DNA from: an uncultured virus (IMG/VR IMGVR_UViG_2865147665_000001)
Lineage: Duplodnaviria; Heunggongvirae; Uroviricota; Caudoviricetes
IMG/VR virus record: IMGVR_UViG_2865147665_000001
Coordinates: 45,563 to 65,562 of that record
Length of the DNA stretch: 20,000 bases
Reading direction: 5' to 3' (one strand)
Shown here: piece by piece, positions 1 to 20,000 of the stretch
Position numbering within the stretch: position 1 is the stretch's first letter
How the letters are laid out: each line of letters begins with the position of its first letter
Program-made: the position numbers and the translations under genes
The notes under the pieces: generated by a model
Told to the model about the DNA's origin: nothing
What the model saw: the letters and a program-made list of their open reading frames with translations, nothing else
The model's database searches: none

Positions 1-2
1 TA

Positions 3-4058: not shown

Positions 4059-4133
4059 GCGTCCAATTTGGCACACGCGGCCCCCCAGTGTTCGTGGCCA
4101 CGTCCGTTAAGCACACAACCTAAGGAGATAGTG

Positions 4134-4499
4134 ATGAGTTCTCAAGATCACTTCCTCGTCCACCTCGCGGGTGCTATCGCTTCTGCCGATTGGCCTAGTC
4201 CGGAGAAGGTGGTTGCGGCCCAACAGGCCATCAAGGAGATGAAGGCAGTCCGGCCTGCCCCCGTCTATGACGATGCGGAATTTCAGGCTGCGTGCGTGGA
4301 CCTGGATTCCGTGACGCGCGATCTCAACGTGGCGCGGCTCGCGCGCGTGCGGCGAGAACAAGAGGGCAAAGAACAAAAGCGTAAACGTCGACGCGCACAA
4401 CAGCGTCAGCGCGCACAACAACATCGGCCGGTGCCGTCGCGGTCCTGGTCGGAACAGACAAAGCAATCGGCTCATGATGAGCCAGAAATGGGGTTTTAA
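4134..4499 (+). CDS. Hypothetical protein, Arg/Gln-rich C-terminal half
   Basis: AAGGAG RBS at 4122-4127 ahead of ATG 4134; co-oriented with neighbours; no family recognised. Confidence 0.7.
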   Translation: MSSQDHFLVHLAGAIASADWPSPEKVVAAQQAIKEMKAVRPAPVYDDAEFQAACVDLDSVTRDLNVARLARVRREQEGKEQKRKRRRAQQRQRAQQHRPVPSRSWSEQTKQSAHDEPEMGF

Positions 4500-4501
4500 T
4501 C

Positions 4502-4858
4502 GTGGCAACGAAGAAGCAGCTTGATCGTGCAATTGCTCGGGCCGAGCGTGTCCAGGAGCAGGTGCTGAAACTGCAGGCTGAAGCCGAGGAGGCCGCTCGT
4601 GAAGCGGATCGTGTGCTCGGTAGTGCCGTGCGTCAGGCAGTCACCGAGTCACGGTCGAAGTGGGCGAAGTTTGCTCACGTGTCAGTGTCCGAATTCTACC
4701 GCCACGTCGTCGACGACGTGGACATCGACGACGTGGCAAATGTAGACGATGCGGCCACGGACGCTGTCCCCGCCGACGGTCACCACTTGCCGCACGACTT
4801 TGTCGATAGCGACGGCGGTGGTGGCACCGGCTATGTCGGCGGGAGCCAGGGGTTCTAG
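4502..4858 (+). CDS. Hypothetical protein, N-terminal coiled coil and acidic C-terminal tail
   Basis: GTG start 2 nt after the upstream stop, suggesting translational coupling; helical charged N-terminus; Asp-rich tail; lies directly before the oriT candidate. Confidence 0.7.
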   Translation: MATKKQLDRAIARAERVQEQVLKLQAEAEEAAREADRVLGSAVRQAVTESRSKWAKFAHVSVSEFYRHVVDDVDIDDVANVDDAATDAVPADGHHLPHDFVDSDGGGGTGYVGGSQGF

Positions 4859-5030
4859 GGGGCGGCAGCGCCCTTAGCCAGCTCACCCGGCAGACGAGGC
4901 CCCCAGGGCCGAATGTCTGACAAGGGTGATGCTGGCCCCACATCCTGACTGGTCTGCGAGGTGCCAATGCGAAGCGAGGCATACCGATGGCAGAACAGTC
5001 AGGATGTGGCAGGTGGGCGTAAGCCCACAG
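4855..5030. other. Putative oriT / single-strand origin region with tandem hairpins
   Basis: Intergenic region directly upstream of mobC. Four inverted repeats (4860-4873, 4877-4936, 4938-5009, 5013-5028). ACATCCTG on both strands resembles the YATCCTG nic core of IncP/IncI1 (MOBP) oriTs. Confidence 0.65.
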
Positions 5031-5058
5031 GGCGGGCTGGCGTGAGGAGTGATGAAGC

Positions 5059-5436
5059 ATGAATAACGGACGACGAATGACAGTGCGCCTCGGCGACTCC
5101 GAGGACGAGGTGGTGCGCAGCACCGCGTCGGCTCTCGGCGTCACCGATAGCGAGGTTGTACGACTGGCGATCATTGCGATGGCGGATAGGTTGCCTGTCG
5201 GTGTAGGTGAGCAAGTGGCGGCTCCTCCGGTGCCGCCTGAAGTGGTGGAGTTGCGCGAAGCGCTCGACCGCTTGGTCGCTGAGGTGTGCCGCGTCGGCGT
5301 GAACATCAACCAGATAGTTCGTATCTGTCACGTGAATGGGTGGTCTGACGACGAACTGCCGGGGCTTCTTGGTGTCCCCGGTGTGATCGACGATCTCGTA
5401 GGCCACGTGCGGGAGGCAGTGGATCGTGTCTGTTAG
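5059..5436 (+). CDS. mobC: Relaxosome accessory protein MobC (ribbon-helix-helix)
   Basis: N-terminal RHH pattern RMTVRL...LGVTDSEVVRLAI and MobC motif RVGVNINQIVR; GAGGAG at 5044-5049; overlaps the relaxase start. Confidence 0.88.
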   Translation: MNNGRRMTVRLGDSEDEVVRSTASALGVTDSEVVRLAIIAMADRLPVGVGEQVAAPPVPPEVVELREALDRLVAEVCRVGVNINQIVRICHVNGWSDDELPGLLGVPGVIDDLVGHVREAVDRVC

Positions 5437-6901
5437 CAAGGTTCAGCGCTCGAGGGATGCTGCCGCTGCCGTGATCTACGCCGTCTACGGAACGAAGAAG
5501 GCTATGAAGGCTGGCTCGGTGCGTGCTGCTGCTGTCTCCGTTGTCGGTCCACGCGGAAGTAACCCCGTGGTGTGGGTGATGGAAACTCGGTCGCGAGTTC
5601 AGGAGTCGGTGCAGCGCCGTAACGAGACGATCAACATCATCCAGTCGTTTAGTCCCGACGAACTAGACCCTGACAACCCCTTGGACGTGGAGAAGGCGCA
5701 TGCGGCGGGCCTCGCCTTGGCCGCGAAGATGGCTCCTGATTGCGACGTGGTCGTCGCTACTCATACCGATACCGCACATGTTCACAACCACATCATTGTT
5801 GCCAACCATGATCGTGGAACTGGGAGGGCCGCGCCGAAGGCGGTAGGCAACGCGTGGCGTGTCCGCGAGACCAACGACGACGTGATGGAGGTCTTCGGTT
5901 TGAAGGTGCTTGGTCGTGATCCGGTGTCGTTGTCGCGCGACGAGCGGGTGGCGCAGGCGAAGGGCGTTGACATTGACGGTTCAGACTTGTCGCTGTCGGA
6001 GTTGACACGCGAGACCTGGCGTGAGTTTGCCCGTGCTCGCATCGAAGAGTTGTTAGAAGACGACCGCGTAATCGCTGCCCTCGACATCGACGGCGGTGGT
6101 GGTGTGGAGCCTGGCTTGGAAGTGATGGAAGAGATCGCCTTCGAGTATCACCTGTCCTTCTCACGCAAGGGGCGGGGCAAGCGCACGCGCAAGAGCGAGC
6201 GGTCGTCGTTCGCATTGGTCGGCGACGACGGCAAGGAGCTGCGCTTGACCGATCGCAACGGCAAGGGCAGCTCTAAGGCGGCTACTGCCGGGTCTCGACT
6301 CGGCTCTGACTACACGATGGATGGGCTTCGCGCTCGGCTACATGAAATACACGCAGAACGACTGATTGATGGAATGGAGATTGACAACAATGGTGGACAA
6401 CAAACGACGGCAACGGACGGACAGCACGGAGTTGCTGAACAAGTTGGCCTCGCAGCTGACGGCGCTAACGAAACAAGTCGAGGACGTGAAGGCTCTGCCG
6501 GTCGGGATGCCCGAGGACGTGGAGCTGCACTTGGCGAGTTATCAGAAGCAACTGACGGACTTGAACAAGCGCATGGAGTCCTTGCAGCGTTCAACAGTGG
6601 GGACGAAGGAATACGAGACGGCGATGGCTCAAGCGACGGCCTCGATGAAGTCGATGGCGGAGATCGCGGCCGCGCTGCCGGTGGCGATTCAGCGCCAGCA
6701 CGAGGGACTGCAGAAGTCGGTGACCGGGATCGTGGCGCCGCTAACGTCGATGGGCGACTTGCTGAAGACCGTGCTCGAACTCGTCGAAGGGCCGCTGAGT
6801 CTCAGCGACGACGCAGTGGAGAGGCTGAGCGTCAGCGTCGAGAAGCGCTTGAGTCCGATGGTCCTCGACCACCTGAAGGCGACTATGGACCGGACTTTTA
6901 G
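5426..6901 (+). CDS. Relaxase / mobilization nuclease, MOBP-like
   Basis: N-terminal Tyr (IYAVYG), motif II IIQSFSPDE, HUH motif HTDTAHVHNHIIV; directly follows mobC; low-complexity C-terminal tail. Confidence 0.9.
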   Translation: MSVSKVQRSRDAAAAVIYAVYGTKKAMKAGSVRAAAVSVVGPRGSNPVVWVMETRSRVQESVQRRNETINIIQSFSPDELDPDNPLDVEKAHAAGLALAAKMAPDCDVVVATHTDTAHVHNHIIVANHDRGTGRAAPKAVGNAWRVRETNDDVMEVFGLKVLGRDPVSLSRDERVAQAKGVDIDGSDLSLSELTRETWREFARARIEELLEDDRVIAALDIDGGGGVEPGLEVMEEIAFEYHLSFSRKGRGKRTRKSERSSFALVGDDGKELRLTDRNGKGSSKAATAGSRLGSDYTMDGLRARLHEIHAERLIDGMEIDNNGGQQTTATDGQHGVAEQVGLAADGANETSRGREGSAGRDARGRGAALGELSEATDGLEQAHGVLAAFNSGDEGIRDGDGSSDGLDEVDGGDRGRAAGGDSAPARGTAEVGDRDRGAANVDGRLAEDRARTRRRAAESQRRRSGEAERQRREALESDGPRPPEGDYGPDF

Positions 6902-7328
6902 TCGCTATGAGCGGTCGTTCAAGAAGATGGTGGACGATGGTGTCGAGGGAGTCGCCCGTGAGCGTAAGCGGTTGGAGACTGCCACCGCTCACACGGTGAC
7001 GGAGGTGGATCGTCTCGATGAGCGTTTGGAAGATCGCACGGTTAGCGTGGTGTCGATTGTGCTGCTCGTGACTGTGCTGGGTGTCGGTGTGATCGTGGTT
7101 GCGGGCGGTCTCTGGATGGGTGCATCACTGCTCGGTATCCCTGCGGCTGTGCCGGAGATGTGGTCACGTGCATGGGCTGCTGACACGTGGTGGTCAGGTG
7201 TGGGCTGGGCACTCGGTGCCGTGGTACTCATGTGCGTGACCATCGCAGCCATTGCTGCGGCTGCTGTGTGGATGGGAAGGCGCTGGCCCGTGGAGGACTA
7301 CAAGGCGTTGTTGAGGCGTAATCGATAG
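6390..7328 (+). CDS. Coiled-coil protein with two C-terminal transmembrane segments, overlapping the relaxase 3' end (MobB-like by position)
   Basis: 312-codon ORF, GGAG at 6376-6379 before ATG 6390. Helical amphipathic N-terminus; hydrophobic stretches VSVVSIVLLVTVLGVGVIVVAGGLWMGASLL and VGWALGAVVLMCVTIAAIAAAAVWM. It is the only long + strand ORF covering 6902-7328. Confidence 0.78.
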   Translation: MVDNKRRQRTDSTELLNKLASQLTALTKQVEDVKALPVGMPEDVELHLASYQKQLTDLNKRMESLQRSTVGTKEYETAMAQATASMKSMAEIAAALPVAIQRQHEGLQKSVTGIVAPLTSMGDLLKTVLELVEGPLSLSDDAVERLSVSVEKRLSPMVLDHLKATMDRTFSRYERSFKKMVDDGVEGVARERKRLETATAHTVTEVDRLDERLEDRTVSVVSIVLLVTVLGVGVIVVAGGLWMGASLLGIPAAVPEMWSRAWAADTWWSGVGWALGAVVLMCVTIAAIAAAAVWMGRRWPVEDYKALLRRNR

Positions 7329-7339
7329 GTGCCATCATC

Positions 7340-7906
7340 CTATTCTTTGACCTCATGCAGCGCGCGATAGATGGTTTGCCGCGAGACGTTGAAGGTGCGT
7401 GCCACCGATGCGACGCTCTCGCCGCTGTCGACCAACTTCGCGGCCTGCTGCTTCTGTTCCATGCTCAACTTCGGCTTCGGTCCTGCCACTCGGCCTTCAG
7501 CCCGGGCATGGGCCACACCTTCACGGGTGCGTTGGACGAGAAGGTCCCGCTCCCACTCGGCCAGGCTCGCCATAACGTTGACTACTACCTTGTCGGCTGG
7601 TCGGCTGGTGTCGAGTGCAGGCTCCAGGACGCGGACGTTGATGTCCCTCTCAGCGAGGTCAGCGATGGTGTTGACAGTTTCGGCGAGGTTACGGCCCAGG
7701 CGATCGAGACGGGTGACCACCAGGGTGTCATCAGAGCGCATGTAGGCCAATGCGTCGTCGAGACCGGGGCGGTTCCAGTTGGTGCCGGAGATAACGTCCT
7801 CGTAAATGCGTTTAGGGTCACAGCCCGCGTTAACGAGCGCTTCACGTTGGGTGTCGAGTGACTGGCCCTGGCGGGCTGTTGAGACGCGGGCATATCCAAT
7901 AAGCAT
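7340..7906 (-). CDS. Small serine recombinase (resolvase/invertase family)
   Basis: MLIGYARVST catalytic motif, RPGL, VTRLDRLGR, C-terminal HTH (VASVARTFNVSRQTIYR). Confidence 0.95.
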   Translation of the reverse strand: MLIGYARVSTARQGQSLDTQREALVNAGCDPKRIYEDVISGTNWNRPGLDDALAYMRSDDTLVVTRLDRLGRNLAETVNTIADLAERDINVRVLEPALDTSRPADKVVVNVMASLAEWERDLLVQRTREGVAHARAEGRVAGPKPKLSMEQKQQAAKLVDSGESVASVARTFNVSRQTIYRALHEVKE

Positions 7907-7908
7907 GT

Positions 7909-10900
7909 TTACTCACCTGTCAGCTCTTCCTCGGTCACCGTGAGGTCAGCAGGCAGCACGCCATCGATGATGTAGGTGCGCAGGAGCTTGTCCAGCATCG
8001 CACGAACCTTGAACTTCGACACTGGTGCGCCAGTGACCTCGGTGAAGTAGGCGGTAGCCAAGTCGAGGTCAATGGATGCCTTGAGGTCATCGAAACGCCC
8101 GTACTCGTTGATGGTTGCTGCCGTAACACGGCTGTCGAGTATTCGGCGCAATAGTCCCGTATCCAGCCCCAGTCGCTCATGAAGACGTGCCAGCTGCCGG
8201 TCACGCTCGGTGATGCGGTACTCGTTGATGTAGTCCTGCACTGTCTTGCCCGGTTGCAGGGCCACGTCGCCTGCCTGGAGATCATGCAGCCAACGGTTAG
8301 CGTAGCGCTGGTCGTCTTGGCTTAGGCGGGCGAAACTATCATGTAGCTGCTCCAGCAGATCATCGAGCATGTGCTCTGCCACGCCGTCCTGGAGTGCCTT
8401 GAGGTACTTCTCAAACTTGCTGTTGAGGTACTCGGCATCGATGCGGTCGGTGTCGATGTGCGTGATGTGCACGTCAATATCGAAGGGCGCGTCATCTGCC
8501 CCACCGGGTGGGTCAGTTGGATCGCCTCCCTCCTTGCCAAGTTCCTTGTAACGGGTGAGCAATGTGGTGAAGACGTCCTCGGTGAGCGTTACCACGATAG
8601 GTTCAGGGAGTGCATCGAAGTAGTAGGTGTCCTTCTCCCAGGTAAAGCCCTGCACCTGTGCTGCCTGGAGTTCGCGGTACATCCGATTGAAGGTCTTGGC
8701 GAACTCGCCCTGGTCAGCCTCAGAATCGGGCAGCTTCGAGAAGTCCGTCTGGCCGGTCGCCGGGTCAGTGAACAGCACTGTAATGATCTCAAAACATTCA
8801 TTGATGGCCTTAAGGTGCTCGTCGAGGTGGTCCACGAACAGGCCGAAAGGCTTGTCACCTGAATACAGCTTCACCGCACGGTCGATGTTGTTCTTCATCG
8901 TGTGTGGCTTGCGGTAGTAGCGGATGGAACCGAACGGCTTTTCCGGGCCGAAGATGCGGTTGGTGCGTGAAAAGGCCTGGATAATGGACTCGTATTCGAT
9001 AACCTTGTCCATGTAGAGGGTGCTGAGCCACTTGGAGTCGAAGCCGGTGAGCATCTGGTCCACCACGATGAGTAGGTCAATGTGCTGGCTACGGTCATCG
9101 AGGAAGGCCTTGGTGTTGTAGGGCGCCTTGTGGGCCAGGCGCTTGGAAACATCCTTCTTAAACTCATCGTGAGTCGGCATGGTGAAGTGCTGGCCATAGG
9201 CAGCGTTGTAGTCGCGGAGAATCTCCAGCAAACCGTCTTCCTTGAACAGCTGACTGTCACCAGTGTTGTCGATATTAGGATCAAACAGCGCCGTGACCTT
9301 AATGTGCGGGTACTGCGCCTTGAAGATGCGGTAGTACTCCACTGCTTCAGGGATGCTGGAGGTCGCCAGGATGGCATGGAACATACTGCCCCGACTCAAC
9401 TGTGCCCAGTGCTCGTTAATGTCGCGGGCAACCGCCTGGCGGTGGTTGTCTTGACGGTACTGAGTGATAGGCAGGTAGTCTTCGATACCCTTGGCGACAC
9501 GCTTGGTACCACTGTCGGTGTCTGTCTCATAGACGCTGGCCATCGGGACCTGGTCCTTGTCCATAAACTTGTAGTAGACAGCCGCCTTCTTGGGGTCCGC
9601 CAGAGCCTCGTCCACGGACGTGGCCTTGGCCTCCTGGAGAGCAACCACAGTGCGCACATCATGCGCCCGGAAGGTTTCCACCATCTCCGGGTCGAAGCCG
9701 AGGACGTTACCGTCGCGAATACCGTCGGCAATTGAATAGCGGTGCAGCTCATTGCCAAACAGCGTGGTCGTGGTGGAGTGCTTCTTCTGGTTCTCGTCGT
9801 GGATGGGCGTGCCGGTGAACCCAAAGAACAGCGCGTTCGGCAAAGTGCGCTTAATGGTCGCGAGCATGTCACCAAAGGTGGTGCGGTGTGCCTCATCGAC
9901 GATGAACACCACACGCTTGGAGCGGATGATGTCCAGGTCGGCTTTCTTGACGGAATCAGCATTAACCCTGCTCATCTTGTGCAGGGAGGTCACGATGAGG
10001 GTGGAGTGCTTGTTCTTGAGCAACGTTATCAACGTGGCAGCACTGGAGGTATCTTCCACGGCGATGCTGTCGCCACCGTAGCTTTCGTAGTTCTCCAACG
10101 ACTGCGTGCCCAGCTCCACACGGTCGAGGAGGAACACTACCTTGTCGGCGTTGTGGGAGTCTGCGATAAGCTGCGCGGTCTTGAAGCTGGTAATCGTCTT
10201 GCCAGAGCCGGTGGTGTGCCAGATGTAGCCACCGAGTTGGTCACCACTGTCCCAGTCGTGACGGTCCACACGGTCAGCGATACGAGAGGCTGCGTAGTAC
10301 TGGTAGGAACGCATGGCCAACAGGTTGCCAGAGGCCCGGTCGGCGACAGTGTAGAAACCAATGAGCTGGTGCGCCATCGGAATAGACAGTAGTGCTCGTG
10401 CCACATCGTCCCACTGGTTGACCGGCTCGTTGTTGAAATCCGCCCAGTGGAAGAAGTAGTCCGGGTTGAACTTAGCTGACCCTGGGTTGGCGAAGTAGAG
10501 TGTTTCCTCCGGGGTCATCGCCACAAAGATTTGCACCAGAGAGAAGATGCCCTGGTAGACGCCCTCGTGGGCGTACTTGGCTACCTGGTTGGCGCCTTGC
10601 GAGACAGGCACGCCTGAGCGCTTGAGTTCGATGTGGAAGACCGGCATACCGTTGATGAGCAGCATCAGGTCGCCGCGTCGTTTCGGCAGCAGCTCATCAG
10701 CGGTCTTGAAACGAGGCTGGACGGCAATCTGGTAGCGCGACTGGCCACCGGCAATCTCCAGGCGGTCATATATTTTCAGGCTGACTTCCACGCCGAAGTT
10801 GTGGGCCTGCGGCGCATCACGGGTGATGGTGACTGTGCGACCGTTGATGAACTCGTTGAGAGCCAACGGCGTGCGCAGCACGTTGATCTGCTCGATGATT

Positions 10901-11100
10901 TGCGCCATCTCGCCCTCGGTGAGTGGCACATCGCCCAGCAGGTCACGGCCCCGGTTGTTGGCGTAGAGAATGTTGGCCCAGTTGTCGATGAGCTGTTGTT
11001 CCGTCGGGTAGCGCAGTAGCTCATCGCTCCAACCGTGGCGGGTGAGCAGGTCGATGAGCGCCGCCTCGAACTCAGCCTCGCAGCGAAATGATGTGGTCAT
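7909..11100 (-). CDS. hsdR: Type I restriction enzyme, restriction subunit R
   Basis: Nuclease motif GDLMLLINGMPVFHIELK; helicase motifs HTTGSGKT, DEAH, GFTGTP, MLTGFD, QAFSRTNR; AGGAG RBS at 11106-11110. Confidence 0.97.
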   Translation of the reverse strand: MTTSFRCEAEFEAALIDLLTRHGWSDELLRYPTEQQLIDNWANILYANNRGRDLLGDVPLTEGEMAQIIEQINVLRTPLALNEFINGRTVTITRDAPQAHNFGVEVSLKIYDRLEIAGGQSRYQIAVQPRFKTADELLPKRRGDLMLLINGMPVFHIELKRSGVPVSQGANQVAKYAHEGVYQGIFSLVQIFVAMTPEETLYFANPGSAKFNPDYFFHWADFNNEPVNQWDDVARALLSIPMAHQLIGFYTVADRASGNLLAMRSYQYYAASRIADRVDRHDWDSGDQLGGYIWHTTGSGKTITSFKTAQLIADSHNADKVVFLLDRVELGTQSLENYESYGGDSIAVEDTSSAATLITLLKNKHSTLIVTSLHKMSRVNADSVKKADLDIIRSKRVVFIVDEAHRTTFGDMLATIKRTLPNALFFGFTGTPIHDENQKKHSTTTTLFGNELHRYSIADGIRDGNVLGFDPEMVETFRAHDVRTVVALQEAKATSVDEALADPKKAAVYYKFMDKDQVPMASVYETDTDSGTKRVAKGIEDYLPITQYRQDNHRQAVARDINEHWAQLSRGSMFHAILATSSIPEAVEYYRIFKAQYPHIKVTALFDPNIDNTGDSQLFKEDGLLEILRDYNAAYGQHFTMPTHDEFKKDVSKRLAHKAPYNTKAFLDDRSQHIDLLIVVDQMLTGFDSKWLSTLYMDKVIEYESIIQAFSRTNRIFGPEKPFGSIRYYRKPHTMKNNIDRAVKLYSGDKPFGLFVDHLDEHLKAINECFEIITVLFTDPATGQTDFSKLPDSEADQGEFAKTFNRMYRELQAAQVQGFTWEKDTYYFDALPEPIVVTLTEDVFTTLLTRYKELGKEGGDPTDPPGGADDAPFDIDVHITHIDTDRIDAEYLNSKFEKYLKALQDGVAEHMLDDLLEQLHDSFARLSQDDQRYANRWLHDLQAGDVALQPGKTVQDYINEYRITERDRQLARLHERLGLDTGLLRRILDSRVTAATINEYGRFDDLKASIDLDLATAYFTEVTGAPVSKFKVRAMLDKLLRTYIIDGVLPADLTVTEEELTGE

Positions 11101-11109
11101 GACAGCTCC

Positions 11110-12339
11110 TTAGATGAACATCCGTTGCAGCAGCGCCGTCTTGGCTTGCTTGAGGGACTCGATGTACTGAGCCTCAGCGGCAATGAGGGAATCTAGCCGG
11201 GTAAACACTGCGCCGATGGCCTGTTGTTCTTCGAGGGTGGGTGGAATGAAGACTTCCAAGTTCTTTACTAAGGCGCCGGACAGATTACCTTGCCCGCCTT
11301 GCAGGTACGTGTCAGTGATGTTCTTCTTGTTCATCCTTAGCCATGCCACTAGGTAGGCAGCGTTAAACCCATCACGTGGAATTAGCGCGAGAATCGCCTG
11401 GTTAATGGCACCTTCAATCTTAGCTAGGCTTACTTCACCCGCAGTCGCACCATAAAGCGCGTAGAGCACCCACCCTGGCTGAACCATCTTGGCAGAACTG
11501 AAATGAAGCCCTGCCTCAGTAAGGGTTAACTCAGTGAATGAGCTAGAAATTTCTGAGGAACGGATAAAGGGGATGTCCCCACCGTAGAACGCGTTTGTGC
11601 CAACAGTAGGTGTTCCCCCAGAAAACGAGTCTGCGATTGCTCCTACCTTAACGACATCCCACTCACCGTCGAATCCCTCCAGCCGCAGCTCGGGCACTGT
11701 CTGGCCCTCCTGCGGGAACATGCACTGCATGAGCGCCGTCTTGGCCTGCTGCAGCGCCTTGTGCTTGAGCATGTGCTGGTTGATGGCCGCGTCGAGATTG
11801 GTGAAGATAGCGCCGATGGCCTGCTGTTCTTCGAGGGTGGGTGCAAGCGTAACGGGAACTTCCAGGAAGTCTTGAGCAGATATGTTGAGCAAGCCGTGGT
11901 TTCGCGCGCCTTCAGCGGAATTGGCTTCTACAAACCTATGCCAGCTGGAAGTTTCAAAGAAAGTGACTAGGAAATCTCCATCAATGGGTGGATGTTCCAA
12001 GAGTCGAAACACAATGTAGAGAGATGACAGGACGCCACGGTCGTACTTGTCGAGACGTTTTACAGTTCCAACAGGATGTCCGGCTGAAAAGCTTTTGTTA
12101 TATGCAAATTCACCATTCTCTACGAGCAGATAGTTTCGGAGATTCGCACTGGCCACTCGATTGTTGAAGTAGGTGATCTGATCCACCAGACCGTACTGAG
12201 CAGAGATAGTAAGCGGTAGGGTGCTTTGCAGGTCTGTGTTCTTCCGCTGCACCCTTTCAGTGAAGGTGTTCAGAGGCACAGTCTCCCACTCACCATCGAA
12301 GCCCTCCAGCCGCAGTGCGGGTACGTTCTGCTTAGGCAT
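11110..12339 (-). CDS. hsdS: Type I R-M specificity subunit S (two TRDs)
   Basis: Duplicated conserved blocks VP(A/E)LRLEGFDGEW, PTLEEQQAIGA and QAKTAL(M/L)QxMF flank two variable regions; ATG 12339 overlaps the hsdM stop. Confidence 0.96.
   Translation of the reverse strand: MPKQNVPALRLEGFDGEWETVPLNTFTERVQRKNTDLQSTLPLTISAQYGLVDQITYFNNRVASANLRNYLLVENGEFAYNKSFSAGHPVGTVKRLDKYDRGVLSSLYIVFRLLEHPPIDGDFLVTFFETSSWHRFVEANSAEGARNHGLLNISAQDFLEVPVTLAPTLEEQQAIGAIFTNLDAAINQHMLKHKALQQAKTALMQCMFPQEGQTVPELRLEGFDGEWDVVKVGAIADSFSGGTPTVGTNAFYGGDIPFIRSSEISSSFTELTLTEAGLHFSSAKMVQPGWVLYALYGATAGEVSLAKIEGAINQAILALIPRDGFNAAYLVAWLRMNKKNITDTYLQGGQGNLSGALVKNLEVFIPPTLEEQQAIGAVFTRLDSLIAAEAQYIESLKQAKTALLQRMFI
11132..12315. 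repeat. Direct repeats within hsdS (conserved regions)
   Basis: 11210-11243 vs 11810-11843 (33/34 identical); 11657-11688 vs 12284-12315 (30/32); 11132-11145 vs 11732-11745 (14/14). Confidence 0.9.
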
Positions 12340-14929
12340 CACGACCACCGCCCAGCAGCTCTTGCAGTGCAGTTACAGCCTGCATATCGGCAGTGTTGCC
12401 CGTGAGTCCACTGAGCAGGCTAGCCAGCTGCTGCTCCGTCTCGCGAATCTGCACGTCGAGGTCGGTCAGCGCTACCGCGTACTTGTCGTGCAGCGCCTGA
12501 ACGCGGGCTGCAAGACCTGCAAGCACGTGACCAGGGATGTCCCGCAGGTCATCCATGAGTGCAGTGATCCACTTGGCGGTGAGCACTTCGTCTACCTGCG
12601 CGTCGGTGAGCGCTTCGATGGTGGCGTAGGTGTCTGCCTCAAGCTGCTGTTCGGCAACCTTGAGGTCCTTCTTGAGTGTGTCACGCTGCTCGATGAGGGC
12701 CTTGGCGCTGAGCATGACAGCCTCGACACTGCCCTCCGGCCAGGTCTGGCCCTTGGGTAGCTTCGGTAGCTCCTTGATGGCCTTCTTCAGTGCAGCAGCA
12801 GTGAAAGCATCCTGCTTATCGTTGAGTACCTCGGCCAGGTCGGTCTTGTCATCTTCGCTCAAGCTCTCGATGAGCTGCGTCAGCTCCGATACCGCTGTGT
12901 CTAGGTCACGGCTCAGCTGGGTTACTTGGTCCTTGAGCTGCGGCAGGTAGAGTTCCTGCACCAACTCATTGGGGGCGATACGCCCCTCCCAGCCGACCTG
13001 GACTTCTTCCTTCTTACCCTTGCGGGTCTTCATCTCCATGACAGGGTCGTTGACCCGCACGGCGTCTAGGCCTTCGGTCTGGATGACCTCTAGGTCAGCA
13101 GCAGTGTTGATCCAGCTGTCATGGAGAACCTGGTAGCCCTCGTAGGCATCAACCAGCGGTACAGGGTCGAGCCGGTCGAATAGGCCAGCCTTGAGCTGGT
13201 CTTCGGTGGTGTTGAGTGGCACGGTGGCGGCGCTGTCCACAAGCAGCGCATGCAGCTTCTCTGGCAGGTCAGATAGTGCTGCATTGACCTGGTCACGCAG
13301 TGCCTGAGCTGCAGGGTGCTGGTCGACAGCCTCACGGAGGTTAGTGGTGTTCAGCTCCGCGTAGCCATTGGCGTTTTCGGTGAACAGAGCCTCACGCAGA
13401 CCAGGCAGCGCAGTCCAGTAGTGCTCCAGGGCGTCAATCTCCGACACTGGAATACCACCGTGCATGGTGGCGTACAGGTCTACAGCCTCCGGCGGCAGGG
13501 TGGCAGACACGTAGCGCGGAATGTTGAGGTTATGGTCGTTCTCGCGAATCTCGTCGCGGGTCACGACCTTAGCGAAGTGTGGCACGTCCTCACGGTTGTG
13601 GACAGCATCAACGATCCGCTGGATGTCGCGGGCACGCAGGTGGTTGTACTTACCCTGCTTAACGAAGCCTTGAGAAGCATCGATGAACAGCACGTCATCG
13701 CGGTCACGCTCCTGCTTGAGCACCAGGATGATGGTGGCAATGCCCGTGCCGTAGAAGATGTTGGAGGGCAGGCCGATGACGGCATCGATGTGGTTGGCCT
13801 CGATGAGATTGCGACGGATGTCAGCCTCAGAGCCACCACGGAACAACACGCCGTGCGGCAAGACGATGGTGAGAATACCGTCGGGCTTGACGTGGAACAG
13901 CTCATGCAGCAGGAAGGCGTAGTCAGCCTTGGTCTTGGGCGCCAGACCAAACCGTGAGAAGCGTGGGTCAGCCTCGTTACCTTCCGGCTCCCACTTCTGG
14001 GAATATGGCGGGTTGGAGACAACCGCGTCCACGTAGAGCGGCTGGTAGGTCTGCACCGGGTCGGACTCGTCGAACATTGGCCAGTCATGAGCCAGGCTGT
14101 CACCGTTGCGAGCGACAATATTGTCAGCCTTCACGCCACGCATGACCAGGTTCATTCGCGTGAGGTTGTACGTGTTCTCGCGCAGTTCCTGGGCAAAATA
14201 CTTGATGCGGCTTGGGTCGCCCATGCGCTTGGCAACGGCTTGGCCGATATTGAGTAGCAGGGAGCCAGAGCCAGAGGTCGGGTCATAGATTTGAATCTCC
14301 TCGCGGCCCTTGAGGTGGTCGGCGACGATGTTGCTCATGATGAGCGAGACTTCGTGTGGGGTGTAGAACTCGCCCGCCTTCTTACCTGCGTTGGCCGCGA
14401 ACTTCTCGATGAGGTACTCGTAAATGTAGCCGAGCACGTCATAGCCCTGCTTGCCGTCGGTGGGGATGTCGTCGATAAGCTCCAGTAGCTTTTTGATGGC
14501 AGCGGTTCGTGCGGTATCGGTAGTGCCGAGCTTGGACAGGCCGGTCTCAAGGGTGTTGAAGATGTCCTCGAAGACATGCTTGCGCTCTGGAGCAATGTTG
14601 CGCTTGAACGTGGCTAACCCTTCACGCACGTGCGCGATGGAGAAATCGTTGCCCATGTCCCGCCACGTGGAGTACAGGTTCTCGTAGGTGAGGAAGTATC
14701 CCAAGTTGTTGCGCACCAGGGATACAGTGTCGGTGTCCGTCTCAACCAGAGCATCAGGCAGGTCTTCCGGCTCAGCGTCGTTGAGTAGCAGGAACTGCTC
14801 GACCTGGTCCGAGAGGAACTTATAGAAGATGAAGCCGAGGATGTAATCCTTATACTCGTTGGCTTCAATTTTGGAGCGCATATTGTTGGCCGATTCCCAG
14901 ATGCGGTTGGCCAGTTCTTGTTTGTTCAC
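12332..14929 (-). CDS. hsdM: Type I R-M N6-adenine methyltransferase subunit M with long C-terminal extension
   Basis: Typical N-terminus NKQELANRIWESANNMR, GEFYTP, motif I DPTSGSGSLL, motif IV NPPY. GTG 14929 preceded by GAGG is preferred over the ORF-track start at 15022. Confidence 0.96.
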   Translation of the reverse strand: MNKQELANRIWESANNMRSKIEANEYKDYILGFIFYKFLSDQVEQFLLLNDAEPEDLPDALVETDTDTVSLVRNNLGYFLTYENLYSTWRDMGNDFSIAHVREGLATFKRNIAPERKHVFEDIFNTLETGLSKLGTTDTARTAAIKKLLELIDDIPTDGKQGYDVLGYIYEYLIEKFAANAGKKAGEFYTPHEVSLIMSNIVADHLKGREEIQIYDPTSGSGSLLLNIGQAVAKRMGDPSRIKYFAQELRENTYNLTRMNLVMRGVKADNIVARNGDSLAHDWPMFDESDPVQTYQPLYVDAVVSNPPYSQKWEPEGNEADPRFSRFGLAPKTKADYAFLLHELFHVKPDGILTIVLPHGVLFRGGSEADIRRNLIEANHIDAVIGLPSNIFYGTGIATIILVLKQERDRDDVLFIDASQGFVKQGKYNHLRARDIQRIVDAVHNREDVPHFAKVVTRDEIRENDHNLNIPRYVSATLPPEAVDLYATMHGGIPVSEIDALEHYWTALPGLREALFTENANGYAELNTTNLREAVDQHPAAQALRDQVNAALSDLPEKLHALLVDSAATVPLNTTEDQLKAGLFDRLDPVPLVDAYEGYQVLHDSWINTAADLEVIQTEGLDAVRVNDPVMEMKTRKGKKEEVQVGWEGRIAPNELVQELYLPQLKDQVTQLSRDLDTAVSELTQLIESLSEDDKTDLAEVLNDKQDAFTAAALKKAIKELPKLPKGQTWPEGSVEAVMLSAKALIEQRDTLKKDLKVAEQQLEADTYATIEALTDAQVDEVLTAKWITALMDDLRDIPGHVLAGLAARVQALHDKYAVALTDLDVQIRETEQQLASLLSGLTGNTADMQAVTALQELLGGGRDA

Positions 14930-14940
14930 GAGGACCTCAC

Positions 14941-15078
14941 TGTTCATAATCGCTCGATTATGGACACCTCTGGACGGAGAGGGTCGAGACGTGACTCGCA
15001 ACGCCCGAAAGATGTTCCACAATCGCTGTTCTGGTTCTCCATTGTACCATAACTGACCAATTGACGATTATGGAACAT
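14941..15078. promoter_or_regulatory. Array of TGTTCCATAATCG-like half-sites (candidate res site / operator) overlapping the hsdM promoter
   Basis: Half-sites at 14941-14952 (+), 14955-14966 (-), 15013-15025 (+), 15043-15055 (+, degenerate) and 15065-15077 (-). Confidence 0.6.
15039..15049 (-). promoter_or_regulatory. Putative extended -10 promoter of the hsdM-hsdS-hsdR-resolvase operon
   Basis: Minus strand reads TGG-TACAAT-GG (TGn extension plus TAnnnT), about 110 nt upstream of hsdM; no clear -35. Confidence 0.55.
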
Positions 15079-15138
15079 ATAGTTTCGCTTGTTGCGGTAA
15101 CTACCCTGCACGGTGTCCGACCTTGTGCGAAGATTCCT

Positions 15139-16593
15139 GGCTCTTCTCGATTTAGAGTGCGTTGATCCGGTCCTGCAGCTGGCCGGAGTGGATCAGCGAC
15201 CGCAAGATGTAGTGGTCGAGGTTCCTGAACCCTAGGGCGATGCCGCGTAGATGCTCCAGCCTGCCGTTGATGGCCTCGACCGGACCGTTGGATGCGCCGA
15301 TATCGAAGTACGCCAGGATGTCGTGCCGTCGGCGCCACAGGGTCCGGCCGAGTTGCGCCAGCTCCTCCAGCCCCGTCGGTAGGCCCTTGCGCAGGGTGCC
15401 GATCACCCTGCCCATCAACTTCTTGCCCCGCGCTCTGTCCGGCTGACCATAGGCACTGACCAGGTCCTGGTAGAACTCCCAGGTCACCTGCAACGCGACG
15501 TAGTCATCGTCGGTGTCCCACAGCCGATCCAGGCGCTGGCGCTGCCGGTCGGTGAGGAAATCGGTCCTGGTCAGCAGCGCCCGGCGGTGCTTGTACAGCG
15601 GATCGTCTTTCTGCCCCCGACGTCCGGTGGTTTCTCGCTGCAGGCGTTGCCGACACCCGCTGAGCTTCTCTGCAGCCAGGTGGACGACGTGGAACGGGTC
15701 CATGACTTTGCGCGCCGCAGGGAGAGAGTGGTCGACGGCGGTGGCGTAGCCGGTGAACCCGTCCATCGTCACGACCTGCACCCCGGCCCGGAAGTCCGGG
15801 TCCCGCTCACCCAGCCAGGTTTTCAGGACGTCTGCGGACCGCCCCGGGCGCATGTCGATCAGACGTGCCGGGCCTGCCCCGTCGGTCAGCGGGGTCAGGT
15901 CCACCAGCACGGTGACCATCGAAGACGGCTCGCCGGGTCGGCGGGTGTGTTTCCAGACGTGCTCATCGACGCCGAGGACCCGGACCCCAGCCAGGTGGGA
16001 GGGGTCAGCGTAGACCATGCTCCGGGCCGCGGTGACGGCGACGGTATTGACCAACTCCCAGCCGATTCCGAGAGCCTTCGCCGTGGCGGCCACGCTCATA
16101 CGGTCGATGGCGAGGCGTTGGAGGATCCAGCGGGTCACCCGGTGGGTGAGTTTCGCCCCGTCGTCAGCGCAGGCCAGTGAGGTCTGGAAGATCTTCCTGC
16201 TGCAGGTGGGGTTGGTGCATGTGAAGCGGGGTACCCGGACGTTCAGGCGGGTGGGGAACCCCACGACCGGTAGGTCGACGAGTCGACGTCGGATGTGGTC
16301 CCGCTTCACCCCAGGCATCGCGCAGTCCGGGCAGGTGTCGGCTACGTCCACCGGCTCGGCGTTGATGATGGTGAGGGTGCCGGCGTCGGCGGCATCGGTG
16401 ATCGTCAGACCGAGTTCTGCGGTGCGGCAGATGGTGTCGGCGACGAGGTTGCCAGTAGGGTGCACGGTAGGGTCCTGGTTCGGTCAGATGGAAGCTTCGC
16501 AACTCTCATCTTGTACCGGCCAGGGCCTCTGTATGTTGTACCACCCCGCGTCCCGCCCTTCAGCTATCTACGCACTCCGAACCGCGAAGAGCC
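15139..16593 (-). mobile_element. ISL3-family insertion sequence, 1455 bp, intact
   Basis: 24-bp terminal inverted repeats GGCTCTTCTCGATTTAGAGTGCGT / GGCTCTTCGCGGTTCGGAGTGCGT (20/24); perfect 8-bp target duplication AGATTCCT at 15131-15138 and 16594-16601. Confidence 0.96.
15152..16465 (-). CDS. ISL3-family transposase
   Basis: Zinc finger CPDC...CTNPTC, LGVDEH, VTMDGFTGY, DPFHVV, SNGPVEAIN, GFRN; the stop codon lies inside the terminal IR. Confidence 0.96.
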   Translation of the reverse strand: MHPTGNLVADTICRTAELGLTITDAADAGTLTIINAEPVDVADTCPDCAMPGVKRDHIRRRLVDLPVVGFPTRLNVRVPRFTCTNPTCSRKIFQTSLACADDGAKLTHRVTRWILQRLAIDRMSVAATAKALGIGWELVNTVAVTAARSMVYADPSHLAGVRVLGVDEHVWKHTRRPGEPSSMVTVLVDLTPLTDGAGPARLIDMRPGRSADVLKTWLGERDPDFRAGVQVVTMDGFTGYATAVDHSLPAARKVMDPFHVVHLAAEKLSGCRQRLQRETTGRRGQKDDPLYKHRRALLTRTDFLTDRQRQRLDRLWDTDDDYVALQVTWEFYQDLVSAYGQPDRARGKKLMGRVIGTLRKGLPTGLEELAQLGRTLWRRRHDILAYFDIGASNGPVEAINGRLEHLRGIALGFRNLDHYILRSLIHSGQLQDRINAL

Positions 16594-16622
16594 AGATTCC
16601 TACCGAACGTCGTGGTTGAGAC

Positions 16623-16650
16623 AAAAAGAGTCCCCTCCCCCGAGGGACTC
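16623..16650 (-). terminator. Possible intrinsic terminator (last hairpin of the 16628-16705 cluster)
   Basis: Stem GAGTCCC/GGGACTC followed on the minus strand by TTTTT. Confidence 0.5.
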
Positions 16651-16707
16651 ACGAAAGTTGCCCTCCCCCCGAGCAACAGTGGCTCCCACGGCGTTCTCCA
16701 TACGCTG

Positions 16708-16749
16708 AAAAAATAAGCCCTACCTGCCATGAGTGGCAGGTAGGGCTTA
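16708..16749 (-). terminator. Intrinsic terminator of ardA
   Basis: Perfect 16-bp stem TAAGCCCTACCTGCCA/TGGCAGGTAGGGCTTA with a 4-nt loop, followed by T6 on the minus strand, 33 nt after the ardA stop. Confidence 0.85.
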
Positions 16750-16782
16750 AGCGCACATGTGTCGATTGCAGAGCTATTTCTA

Positions 16783-17373
16783 TCAGTAATTGCGGAAAAT
16801 GTAAACGCCGAACTCACCGCTGAAGCGTTCGGAGCCCTCGACCGAGAAGTCGTGCTTAAGGTCGCGCACGAAGCCAGCGTAGTCGAAGTACCTCTGTGCC
16901 AGCTCGTCCCATCCGCTCATGTCGATGGTCTGGTCGATGAGGTCATAGGCGAAGTCCTCCCACGTATCCCAGTGGCCGCTGTAGGCCTCCATGAAGTCGG
17001 AGACGCAGGGTGTGCCATGACTGTCTTCGGTGTACATCCCGGTCGTCACCCAGGCGCACAGGGCGGGCCACAGGTGTTCAGCGTCCAACTCGATGTAAAC
17101 CTCACCCCATCGGGTGGCTTCGAGCAGGTCCATCTCCCCGCTTGTGGGCATGTTGTCGATGTCGAAGCACCAGAGTTCCTCGCACTCGGGTGTGCTCAGG
17201 TACCCACCGTCGCGGTGGATGCGCTCGACGTCGAAGACGTGCGGGGCGTCGGCGATGTCGGCAGCGTCGTACCAGGCACCGACCAGGCGGCCGGAGTTGT
17301 AGCAGTGCAGACACCCAGCCCACACGCGCGGGGCGTGAGTGTGGATGGAGGGGGTGGTCGTGGGCAGGGACAT
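16783..17373 (-). CDS. ardA: Antirestriction protein ArdA (type I R-M inhibitor, DNA mimic)
   Basis: PRVWAGCLHCYNSGRLVGAW N-terminus, EELWCFD, C-terminal YFDYAGFVRDL; very acidic; AGAGAGG RBS at 17381-17387. Confidence 0.9.
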   Translation of the reverse strand: MSLPTTTPSIHTHAPRVWAGCLHCYNSGRLVGAWYDAADIADAPHVFDVERIHRDGGYLSTPECEELWCFDIDNMPTSGEMDLLEATRWGEVYIELDAEHLWPALCAWVTTGMYTEDSHGTPCVSDFMEAYSGHWDTWEDFAYDLIDQTIDMSGWDELAQRYFDYAGFVRDLKHDFSVEGSERFSGEFGVYIFRNY

Positions 17374-17448
17374 GGGACGGCCTCTCTTGTGAGTGGGTGT
17401 AGGTCACTTCTGTCCCCGGATGCGGCTCTGCCGCTTCTGTACGGTGAT

Positions 17449-18927
17449 CTACGACTTCCAGACCACTTTCACGCGCTCCGGCTCGAAAGATTTTGCCCCA
17501 GGCGTGCCACGCGTAATGTGGATCGCCATCAGCAGATGAACGAGGCGCCGCTGGTCCTCGATCGAAGCCCCCACCCACCATGCGGGAAAGTCCACAGCGT
17601 CGGCGATGTCCGCCAGGATGGGGTCAGCCGTGGTCGGCATCGTCAGTTCCTGGACCTCGACGTCGACAGCCTCGATCTGCTGGCTGAACTTGTTCTCAAG
17701 CCTCACGAAGGCAGACGTGTCCATAGCTCCGTCGACGACGTGCTGTTCCAGCTCCTCCCTGCGGGCAAGTAGTGCGGCTCGTCGGGCCACCAGTTCCTGA
17801 AGCCTATCGCCGGTCTCGTCGCTGTCGTCCGGACACAAAGCGACACGGAGGACGTCGAAAGCGTCCGGCTTGGCCATGCGGGCAAAGACGACCTTCTCAA
17901 TGAAGTCGTCTACGTCGTCGGTGACCGACGTGTGGGTGGCTCCGGCGACCTCGCGCTTGCACGCGTAGTAGTGCGCTCGGCCACCTTTCCGCGCCCGTGT
18001 GCGGTGATACATCGGCGCTCCGCAAGAGCACTTGAGCACGCCAGAGAGAAACTTGGTGGGAGCGGCCCCGGCGTGAGCGGTACGCCGAGAGGGATCGTTA
18101 AGGACAGCGCCTACCTGGGCGAACAACTCATCATCGATGATGGCAGGCCAGGAGCCCCTACCAACAACCTGGCGGTCTTTGACCAGTCGGTAGCCGGTTT
18201 CGGGGTCAGTTGGGTTGAAGGTGGACTTGCCGTTGGCGCGGGGATTCAACAGCAGGTCACGCAGGGTGTAGGCGCTCATGGGTGCGCCAAGCGTCGTAGT
18301 CAGACCGCGCGAGTTAATCATGCGCGCAGCCTCGCGGAGTGTCTTGCCACTCACGACCATGCGCGCGGCCTCCTGGAGCGCCTCGGCTTCGGCGGGCACG
18401 ATGGTCACCGCGTCTGCCTCGTAGCCGAACATGCGTCGGCCACCGGTCTTCGGTCGGCCTGTGCGGGCACGGTCCTCGTAGGCTGACCTGATTCGCGCTG
18501 CACGGTCGATACTTTCTTGCTCGGCAATGAGCCCAAGGATGACGATGACCAGCCGGGAGGTCGGGTCGGAAGGGTCGATACTGTAGCCGCGCGTGGCTTT
18601 CACCTTCACGCCATGGTGCTCGCAGAGCTCGAAGAGTGTGAGCGTATCTTTTGTCCGTCTCGCGAGTCGGTCTAAGGCGTAGACATAGACAGTGTCGATG
18701 TCACCAGCCTCGATGGTCTGGAGCAGGCGCTCGTATTCAGGTCGGCGGGAACCGGAGAAGGCGGAGATGTTGTTGTCGACGAACTTGCCGTCGGGGATGA
18801 TCACAGCCTCGTCGGCTTCAGCGAGCTTGGTGCATAGGTGAACCTGGCGCTTTACGCCCGCCTCCTCTTTCTTGTCCAACGAGATACGTGCGTAGATGGC
18901 GGCACGGGGGTGCGGTGAGTCGGTCAT
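17449..18927 (-). CDS. Large serine recombinase (integrase)
   Basis: Catalytic AAIYARIS, SAFSGSRRPEY, LDRLAR; recombinase domain (FGY); zinc ribbon LSGVLKCSCG...YYAC; C-terminal coiled coil. ATG 18927 preferred as start. Confidence 0.95.
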   Translation of the reverse strand: MTDSPHPRAAIYARISLDKKEEAGVKRQVHLCTKLAEADEAVIIPDGKFVDNNISAFSGSRRPEYERLLQTIEAGDIDTVYVYALDRLARRTKDTLTLFELCEHHGVKVKATRGYSIDPSDPTSRLVIVILGLIAEQESIDRAARIRSAYEDRARTGRPKTGGRRMFGYEADAVTIVPAEAEALQEAARMVVSGKTLREAARMINSRGLTTTLGAPMSAYTLRDLLLNPRANGKSTFNPTDPETGYRLVKDRQVVGRGSWPAIIDDELFAQVGAVLNDPSRRTAHAGAAPTKFLSGVLKCSCGAPMYHRTRARKGGRAHYYACKREVAGATHTSVTDDVDDFIEKVVFARMAKPDAFDVLRVALCPDDSDETGDRLQELVARRAALLARREELEQHVVDGAMDTSAFVRLENKFSQQIEAVDVEVQELTMPTTADPILADIADAVDFPAWWVGASIEDQRRLVHLLMAIHITRGTPGAKSFEPERVKVVWKS

Positions 18928-18929
18928 AC

Positions 18930-18990
18930 ACCCCATCGTACCCACTACCCTGGTTCAAAATTCCCCGACCCGGTGGCGCCGATACACAGT
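18930..18990. other. Hybrid attachment site (host attB half / element attP half), crossover near 18960-18965
   Basis: Minus strand: GGCGCCACCGGGTCGGGGAA (host Walker A codons), then an abrupt switch to TTTTGAACCAGGGTAG with an in-frame stop, directly upstream of the integrase. Confidence 0.7.
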
Positions 18991-20000
18991 CCGTGGGGGC
19001 CGATCCCGCCTTTCGCGGCTTCCCTGATGTCGAGGTAGACCGGGGCACCTCCCGACGTACCGACCGGTGCCCGTAGCTCTCCTCCGGGCAGGTCGAGCAG
19101 CGACCTCTCCTGCCGGTGACGGCACCGGGACCTGCACAACGCCGCCAGTTCCACATCGCTGAGACTGTCGGCGACGGCGAAAGGACGCCACCCGTCGACT
19201 GTCCATGCAGACAGCACCCCGTCCTCGGCGCGGAGAAGCAGACCCCCGTCGCGGGCAGCGTCCTCGGTCGCCCGGTCGGGGTGGGCTACGACGGCGCACC
19301 CCACTTCTCTGCCGGCGGCAGTGTCCTTGTTCTGTCCCACCGGCGTGGCCGGCGGTCCACCGTGCAGGAAGCAGACGGACAACGGACCATGGTGCGGCAA
19401 CCAGCGGTCGTGCGGACCTGTGACAGTCACAGTGTCCTCGTCCTGCATGACCAGTGCACCCTGCACTGCCCTGACCAGCCCGGACGCGTCCTTACCGGTG
19501 ACCGCCACCACAGGAAACTCGCGCAGGTCGACGGCGACCGGAGCCTCGACGGTGGCATGGCGGATCGCCAGGTCTCTCAGGGACATCGCGCACACAGGTT
19601 CAAGGTCCTCGGGCGGGGTGTCCACAGGAATGTCGAGCGGGTCGTCCGGAGCCTGGACCGCTGTCCCGATGCGCACGACCCCCGGCTCCCGGTCCGTCCC
19701 GTTGATCCTCTCGTCGTCCCCTGTGACGAAGGTCCAGAGGGCCCCAGGGTGGGGGTGCCTGGCGAGTGCCTGCTCCACCTGTTCTCTCCTGGAGCGTCGG
19801 AGCCCGTCGGAGAGAGCGTCAAGATGACGGTGGTAGCTGCGACGGGTCTCGTCGACATCCTGACCGCCCGGTTGGAACATCATCAACATGCTCCCCACGA
19901 GCATCAACGGGAAAAGGAATGTGGTCGGATTCCTCGCCATGCCAGACAGCACCATCGCCGCGACCATGCCCAGCACGGCGACAAGCATCACCGCAGGCAT
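18945..20000 (-). pseudogene. eccCa: Type VII secretion FtsK/SpoIIIE ATPase (EccC/EccCa-like), 5' part, interrupted at its first Walker A motif; true start probably beyond the window
   Basis: Two N-terminal TM helices (FLFPLMLVGSMLMM), HPHP..LW, VRIG, LEPVCA, then LRAPVG...VYLDIREAAKGGIGPHGLCIGATGSG, which ends NFEPG-stop instead of the conserved KSE. Confidence 0.88.

Follow-up and report, generated by a model that had tools for sequence, protein, structure and literature searches.

A probable integrative mobilizable element inserted at the Walker A lysine codon of eccC in a corynebacterial ESX-4 locus

The window, a stretch of 20,000 nucleotides that forms the last 20 kb of a contig of 65,562 bases, holds one end of an element integrated exactly in the codon of the catalytic Walker A lysine of eccC, the gene of the coupling ATPase of ESX/type VII secretion. 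The site, the two-base crossover core and the geometry of the attachment sites are established by an empty allele of the same species and by recurrence of the same junction in other genomes. The element is, in our judgment, probably a selfish integrative mobilizable element for which the conserved P-loop codons of eccC serve as a landing pad. The more far-reaching proposal of the first-pass annotation, a type VII secretion switch controlled by excision, remained unsupported.

The insertion site in eccC

On the minus strand, the EccC frame runs from the contig end through GPHGLCIGATGSG and then continues as N-F-E-P-G to a stop (window 18947-18945, minus strand); the integrase gene starts at 18927, 18 bases further on. 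The Walker A Lys codon now reads AAT (Asn; window 18962-18960, minus strand). The first-pass annotation had placed the junction in or next to this catalytic codon, which was confirmed, as AA represents the first two bases of the Lys codon. The remaining 3' part of eccC, predicted to lie left of the window, was found 21 kb away from genome position 43250 onward and opens with K-S-E-F-L-R-S-V-V-T. It comprises 779 stop-free codons with three FtsK stretches (genome 43250 down to 40911). The dinucleotide AA was the sole sequence common to both junctions (Table 1). As the annotation had held, integration destroys the full-length EccC frame; what remains is a shortened N-terminal fragment and a 3' fragment without a start. 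The contig ends before the 5' part is complete, some 20 codons from the start codon of the empty allele.

A Corynebacterium genome of the same species (G139) provided the empty allele, in which G-K-S-E is read within an open frame of 1150 codons. It aligned to genome 39441-43250 and 64523-65562 with 99.0% and 99.9% identity, respectively, and an overlap of two bases; excision would therefore rebuild G-K-S-E. The split halves differ from G139 by 1 and 8 nucleotides without any stop, the 8 differences in the 3' part amounting to 3 amino acids. The insert measures 21,274 bp, with one core counted. Joined, the element ends form an imperfect inverted repeat symmetric at 15/24 positions, compared with 8/22 for the host site. 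A central 2-bp crossover, an inverted-repeat attP and a dissimilar attB, as in large serine integrase systems, were thus all found. The alignment to an empty allele, suggested at the outset, defined attB and attP with their AA core, and the claim that excision restores the gene held in silico, where the G139 allele and the att ends rebuild the Lys codon exactly. The knockout of eccC would be reversible in principle.

Surveyed for their insertion sites, related integrases used the same Walker A codon and AA core, with G-K-S-E rebuilt, in 16/16 genomes with both ends found, in both orientations; this count leaves out G005, whose far junction is missing, and two Gordonia loci that were not traced to the far end. 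Across the 16 end pairs, attP arms were symmetric at 13-20/24 positions and attB at 3-11/22. Since the same codon and core recur in all of these genomes, the junction is not a product of chance. None of the three contrary results named in the first-pass annotation (lack of an eccC continuation, a replacement 5' half, or relatives truncated without the element) was encountered.

Two other origins of the split gene were considered. A replacement 5' half supplied by the element was rejected, as the far end has no in-frame start between the upstream stop and the Lys codon. A natural EccCa/EccCb split was also rejected, as the break lies within ATPase 1 and the two parts are fused in the empty allele. 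No tRNA genes were found in the window.

The element, its cargo and the host locus

Table 1. Features of the element and of the adjoining eccC sequence. Positions are those of the window unless marked as genome positions.
Feature	Position	Strand	Remarks
eccC 5' part, to last Gly of Walker A, ATPase 1	18963..20000	-	intact G139 allele passes EccCa and EccCb models (TIGR03924, TIGR03925)
attL AA crossover core, first two bases of Walker A Lys codon	18961..18962	-	partner attR core at genome 43249-43250
Element arm of attL	18937..18960	-	imperfect inverted repeat with far element end; contains stop 18945-18947
Element portion inside window	1..18962		extends 2.3 kb further left, genome 43251-45562
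Large serine integrase, 492 aa	17449..18927	-	PF00239, PF07508 and PF13408 over cut-off
ArdA antirestriction protein	16783..17373	-	PF07275
ISL3 transposase	15152..16465	-	absent from near-identical element of G001
Type I restriction-modification cargo hsdM, hsdS, hsdR	7909..15022	-	hsdS unlike that of G001's element
Small serine resolvase	7340..7906	-	PF00239 and PF02796
320-aa protein, hydrophobic C-terminus	6366..7328	+	no Pfam family
Mobilisation module: relaxase and MobC-like (weak, below cut-off)	5059..6901	+	PF05713, PF03432
Two small ORFs, 143 and 118 aa	4068..4858	+	no family
1390-aa protein, C-terminal family A DNA polymerase	1..4058	+	PF00476, TIGR00593 partial; start at genome 45448
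IS3-family element	genome 44059-45326		left of window; absent from G001's element
Excisionase-like HTH gene, candidate directionality factor	genome 43747-44058		left of window

The catalytic residues R-I-S of the integrase were invariant among 29 relatives, and a match to the XisF model scored far below its cut-off. Integrase and relaxase lie on one integrated unit, as in integrative mobilizable elements. No conjugation channel or coupling protein was found among the 16 element ORFs scanned, and the element is therefore read as mobilizable. The 1390-aa protein (genome 45448-49620) has an N-terminal part that is primase/helicase-like by motifs, with no family match, as well as a 3'-5' exonuclease-like and a family A polymerase part. 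This primase-PolA fusion is likely to be the replication protein of the element. Classification as a pipolin was rejected, because the polymerase belongs to family A and not to the primer-independent family B.

The ArdA gene (window 16783-17373) travels with the element's own type I restriction system, and its 90% cluster takes in a Corynebacterium renale protein. The hsdS gene differs between near-identical elements (window 11110-12348 versus L197:12920-13943), and stretches replaced at hsdS in runs X1, X5 and X8 are read as specificity-domain exchange.

The host locus is ESX-4, with eccB, mycP, a diverged eccD, a fused eccC, an Rv3446c-like gene, a GntR gene and two WXG100 genes. The gene set is complete in the empty allele G139, where EccB scored over the cut-off and mycP was found by tblastn. 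EccD of G139 was missed by TIGR03920 and reached only via the weakly scoring copy of G001 (48%); this EccD (L195:8200-9970) is too diverged for the curated model in this host lineage, whose EccC also has an N-terminal part that falls short of that of other corynebacteria by about 100 residues. Within the locus, a GntR/FCD regulator gene (L001:2706-3500) separates the Rv3446c-like gene from the two WXG100 genes. Left of the window, the same contig carries a prophage encoding a tyrosine integrase, and its joint with the host (genome ~38227; L001:2228) falls 6-7 codons inside the second WXG100 gene; the far end of the prophage is not on the contig. A related viral contig, L237 (81% integrase identity), has the same 10-base stretch at the prophage-WXG100 joint.

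Related elements and their targets

Kin of the element were gathered via its integrase. Scanning GTDB contigs yielded 15 loci, of which three were dropped as weak unrelated matches and 12 were clade members (7 Corynebacteriaceae, 5 Gordonia). GATGSG-N was read just upstream of the integrase in 11 of the 12, and the remaining one was inverted at the same codon. An integrase match was present in 26 of 321 Corynebacterium genomes; twelve matches at ≥61% identity and one at 39% all lay at the Walker A codon, which is occupied in 13/321 Corynebacterium genomes and in 5 Gordonia genomes. That the target is common to many hosts, as first proposed, was borne out for these two genera, and the eccC 3' part was matched in 315/321 Corynebacterium genomes. 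Five further genomes checked as extra carriers (G062, G166, G267, G021 and G022) proved not to be; G166 has a short frame on the eccC 5' side without an integrase match. Three of four metagenome loci were at the Walker A codon and one elsewhere. Element sizes ranged from ~9.6 to 35 kb among carriers with variable cargo. Neither integrase relatives nor att arms were found in the viral contigs and plasmids searched, and the 12 phage matches listed for the integrase were ~30% identical.

The element moved recently between species. By segment it is 90-99% identical to that of G001, reaching 98-99% in the stretches of the integrase, ArdA, hsdR and the relaxase and 90-95% in the rest; EccC of the two hosts, by contrast, is 62-70% identical. 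The 90% cluster of the integrase takes in a Brevibacterium aurantiacum protein. G029 has an intact eccC besides a second, divergent copy, and it is this second copy that the element occupies. Contigs from 4 of 21 listed runs were compared against the element of G001. Run X11, a fermentation metagenome, contained the left junction with the window's own host flank. In runs X1 and X8 the flanks, judged by eye from 30-letter loose ends, resemble the Walker A region of a putative ABC-type ATPase, going by the family motif; a 30-base pattern for this alternative flank matched 0/401 genomes. No circle or empty-site joint was found in the contigs of the four runs, from which rare forms drop out. Of two close sister integrases, L049 and L050, one targets a pirin-like gene and the other the Walker A codon of eccC, which is read as a recent target switch.

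Regular restoration of a needed gene by excision would be expected to keep its two halves intact. Both were open in 10 of 14 corynebacterial carriers and in 3/3 Gordonia carriers tested, and 4 of the 14 were further broken. Premature stops interrupt the 3' part in G001, G002 and G004 (codons 243, 61 and 94), and G002 has just 131 open codons before the motif. In G005 the junction and the first ATPase region are missing beside a transposase that is presumably IS6-like. Among ~140 listed non-carrier alleles there was no frame-shortening stop and one short 5' frame; this is a hand count over the ~150 best rows, from which 4 at contig edges were removed and beyond which 337 were unlisted. The excess of nonsense stops in the 3' half of carriers (3/13 versus 0/~140, Fisher P 0.0005) is suggestive, because the allele list favours intact genes.

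PF07508 matched in at least 111 of the 321 Corynebacterium genomes (best 150 of 153 matches). Of 127 corynebacterial serine-integrase loci examined (27 from the integrase search, 100 fetched), 20 were in ESX-4 genes at six sites: 13 at Walker A, 2 in the N-terminal region of eccC and 5 in WXG100 genes at four sites, most of the non-Walker A sites being known from one junction. None of five further loci, two of them on tiny contigs, was in an ESX-4 gene. Clustered at 50% identity (117 proteins), 7 of 31 integrase clusters had ESX-4 insertions, giving a binomial P of about 1e-5 if ESX-4 made up 2.5% of targets and 7e-4 if 5%, with an assumed background rate and related clusters. The ESX-4-targeting integrases fall on distant branches of a FastTree phylogeny that carried long-branch warnings. 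Other targets in Corynebacterium were the ychF 3' end (gene kept), a luciferase-like monooxygenase, the Walker A of comM, HNH, pirin and comEC. In Gordonia, 30 of 100 listed matches were examined, and these included 5 in eccC (three sites), 4 in comEC and 1 at the Walker A of a TadA-type ATPase.

Three serine integrases (L052, L053 and L209) sit at a Walker A motif, two in comM and one in the TadA-type ATPase; P-loop codons are thus a recurring target. A nearly invariant integrase (L123-L139, L169, L173) occurs in ~20 Corynebacterium genomes, mostly at the ychF 3' end, implying very recent spread. Three Gordonia integrases (L202, L203, L217) cut a gene that is MinD/ParA-like by eye, with no Pfam match; MinD/ParA-like ATPases can be associated with type VII systems.

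Interpretation and comparison with known systems

We favour, with moderate confidence, a selfish integrative mobilizable element that exploits the P-loop codons. Sequence geometry and the empty allele indicate that its serine integrase recombines attP, an inverted repeat, with a host site that has the AA of the Walker A Lys codon at its centre, and with eccC in two pieces no full-length EccC can be made. Secretion through ESX-4 would then be lost, judging from the role of EccC as coupling ATPase. Excision, probably with a small directionality factor, may rebuild the gene and free a circle, which the relaxase could transfer using the conjugation machinery of a helper. The GxxGxGK codons, conserved across hosts in a losable gene, would thereby act as landing pad, and the knockout would be a long-lived side effect that is not timed by the host. 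We favour this reading because of the exact 2-bp core, the empty allele and the uniform AA cores; because the element is nearly identical to that of G001 in spite of divergent host EccC; because of the insertion into the second eccC copy of G029 and the Brevibacterium aurantiacum cluster member; because the Walker A of comM, of a TadA-type and seemingly of an ABC-type ATPase are also used; and because the split eccC genes of G001, G002, G004 and G005 bear extra lesions. Against the landing pad, the open halves in most corynebacterial and all tested Gordonia carriers are also expected under selected restoration, one of the four metagenome loci is not at Walker A, and no circle or empty joint appeared in the contigs of the four runs, which lack rare forms. 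Motif conservation also leaves unrelated integrases at six dissimilar ESX-4 sites, including 300-bp WXG100 genes, without explanation.

An assembly chimera or chance junction could be suspected, since the virus record consists of one contig; with both junctions on that contig, the left junction with the same host flank in run X11 and the same site in all 16 genomes, it is extremely improbable and is refuted by recurrence in independent genomes. A switch used by the host, in which programmed excision turns ESX-4 on in a subpopulation or under a signal (regulated gene integrity), agrees with the precise restoring geometry, as integration inactivates the gene and excision restores it exactly in silico. 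It also agrees with the excisionase-like gene carried by the element and with eccC halves and att arms that are intact in this genome and most carriers. We nevertheless regard it as improbable: the halves are not intact in every carrier, a genome of the same species lacks the element, occupancy is 13/321, and the element, with its variable size and cargo, was transferred recently between species. The prophage in the same locus would moreover blunt a switch if its gene were not restored, and no excised junction was found in the contigs of the four runs, although this is a weak test as rare forms drop out. A further alternative keeps the same element and chemistry and adds a gain from disabling ESX-4, which would aid uptake or recombination of incoming DNA or purge mobile elements; a gain of this kind has been proposed for insertions in comM and comEC. 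The hits at six sites by 7 of 31 clusters on distant branches, the Gordonia insertions in eccC, comEC and the TadA-type gene, the insertion in corynebacterial comEC and the prophage in the second WXG100 gene are in its favour, and M. smegmatis recipients require ESX-4 for conjugal DNA transfer (PMC8718981). On the other hand, the literature search gave no DNA-uptake function for corynebacterial ESX-4, the binomial estimate is made on related clusters with an assumed background rate, and most non-Walker A sites have a single junction. Unrelated genes (ychF 3' end, luciferase-like monooxygenase, HNH, pirin) are also struck repeatedly, and in runs X1 and X8 this same element has apparently inserted into a different P-loop gene. 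The gain is a tentative proposal. Given the hotspot alongside comEC, comM and tadA, elements may therefore profit from disabling ESX-4; it is conceivable, if rather unlikely, that ESX-4 is a recurrent selected target in Corynebacterium and Gordonia, struck at no fewer than eight sites by unrelated integrases owing to a role in DNA acquisition or mobile-element removal, with the Walker A family as its most widespread antagonist.

Little is known of what ESX-4 does outside mycobacteria, and the element family offers natural, precisely mapped knockouts together with an empty allele from the same species. A testable lead on this role comes from the way in which integrase targets cluster in ESX-4 and DNA-uptake genes, and it is this hotspot pattern that merits further work. 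An integrase with mapped attB/attP whose target is present in most corynebacteria may also be of use in engineering C. glutamicum. For annotation, such split eccC genes should be taken neither as natural EccCa/EccCb pairs nor as simple pseudogenes.

The literature search, in which subscription papers were thinly covered, gave no title or abstract on a Walker A-targeting eccC element or an ESX-4 integration hotspot. Mageeney et al. in 2020 reportedly listed eccCa1 among integrase-interrupted genes that are candidates for regulated gene integrity; these are alike in that an eccC-type gene is inactivated and restorable by excision, and they may be this very family. Host-timed excision has been demonstrated for sigK-skin, spsM-SPbeta, the Listeria comK prophage and XisF elements. 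These likewise combine a serine recombinase, a split coding sequence and precise restoration, but they are timed by the host, whereas the element here is sporadic and mobile. Integrative mobilizable elements and defence islands such as pipolins (PMC11551731) share with this element the integrase, an own replication protein and restriction cargo, and no conjugation channel was found among its 16 scanned ORFs; pipolins have a primer-independent PolB, in contrast to family A within the 1390-aa fusion. The representative of LSR cluster8832 (Durrant et al., 2022; PMC10083194, supplementary file 3, row 967; NC_021351.1) falls in this integrase clade on visual comparison of its displayed sequence with the G003 protein; unlike here, its listed attB/attP show neither Walker A codons nor inverted-repeat arms, and eccC and type VII are unnamed in the searched main text and supplements of that source. 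The serine-integrase elements in comM/yifB and competence genes likewise disrupt a conserved dispensable ATPase gene site-specifically (PMC10083194, PMC12378983). They differ in their target, which here is the type VII secretion ATPase with a hypothetical curing role of ESX-4, and a related corynebacterial integrase cuts comM at Walker A, just as eccC is cut here.
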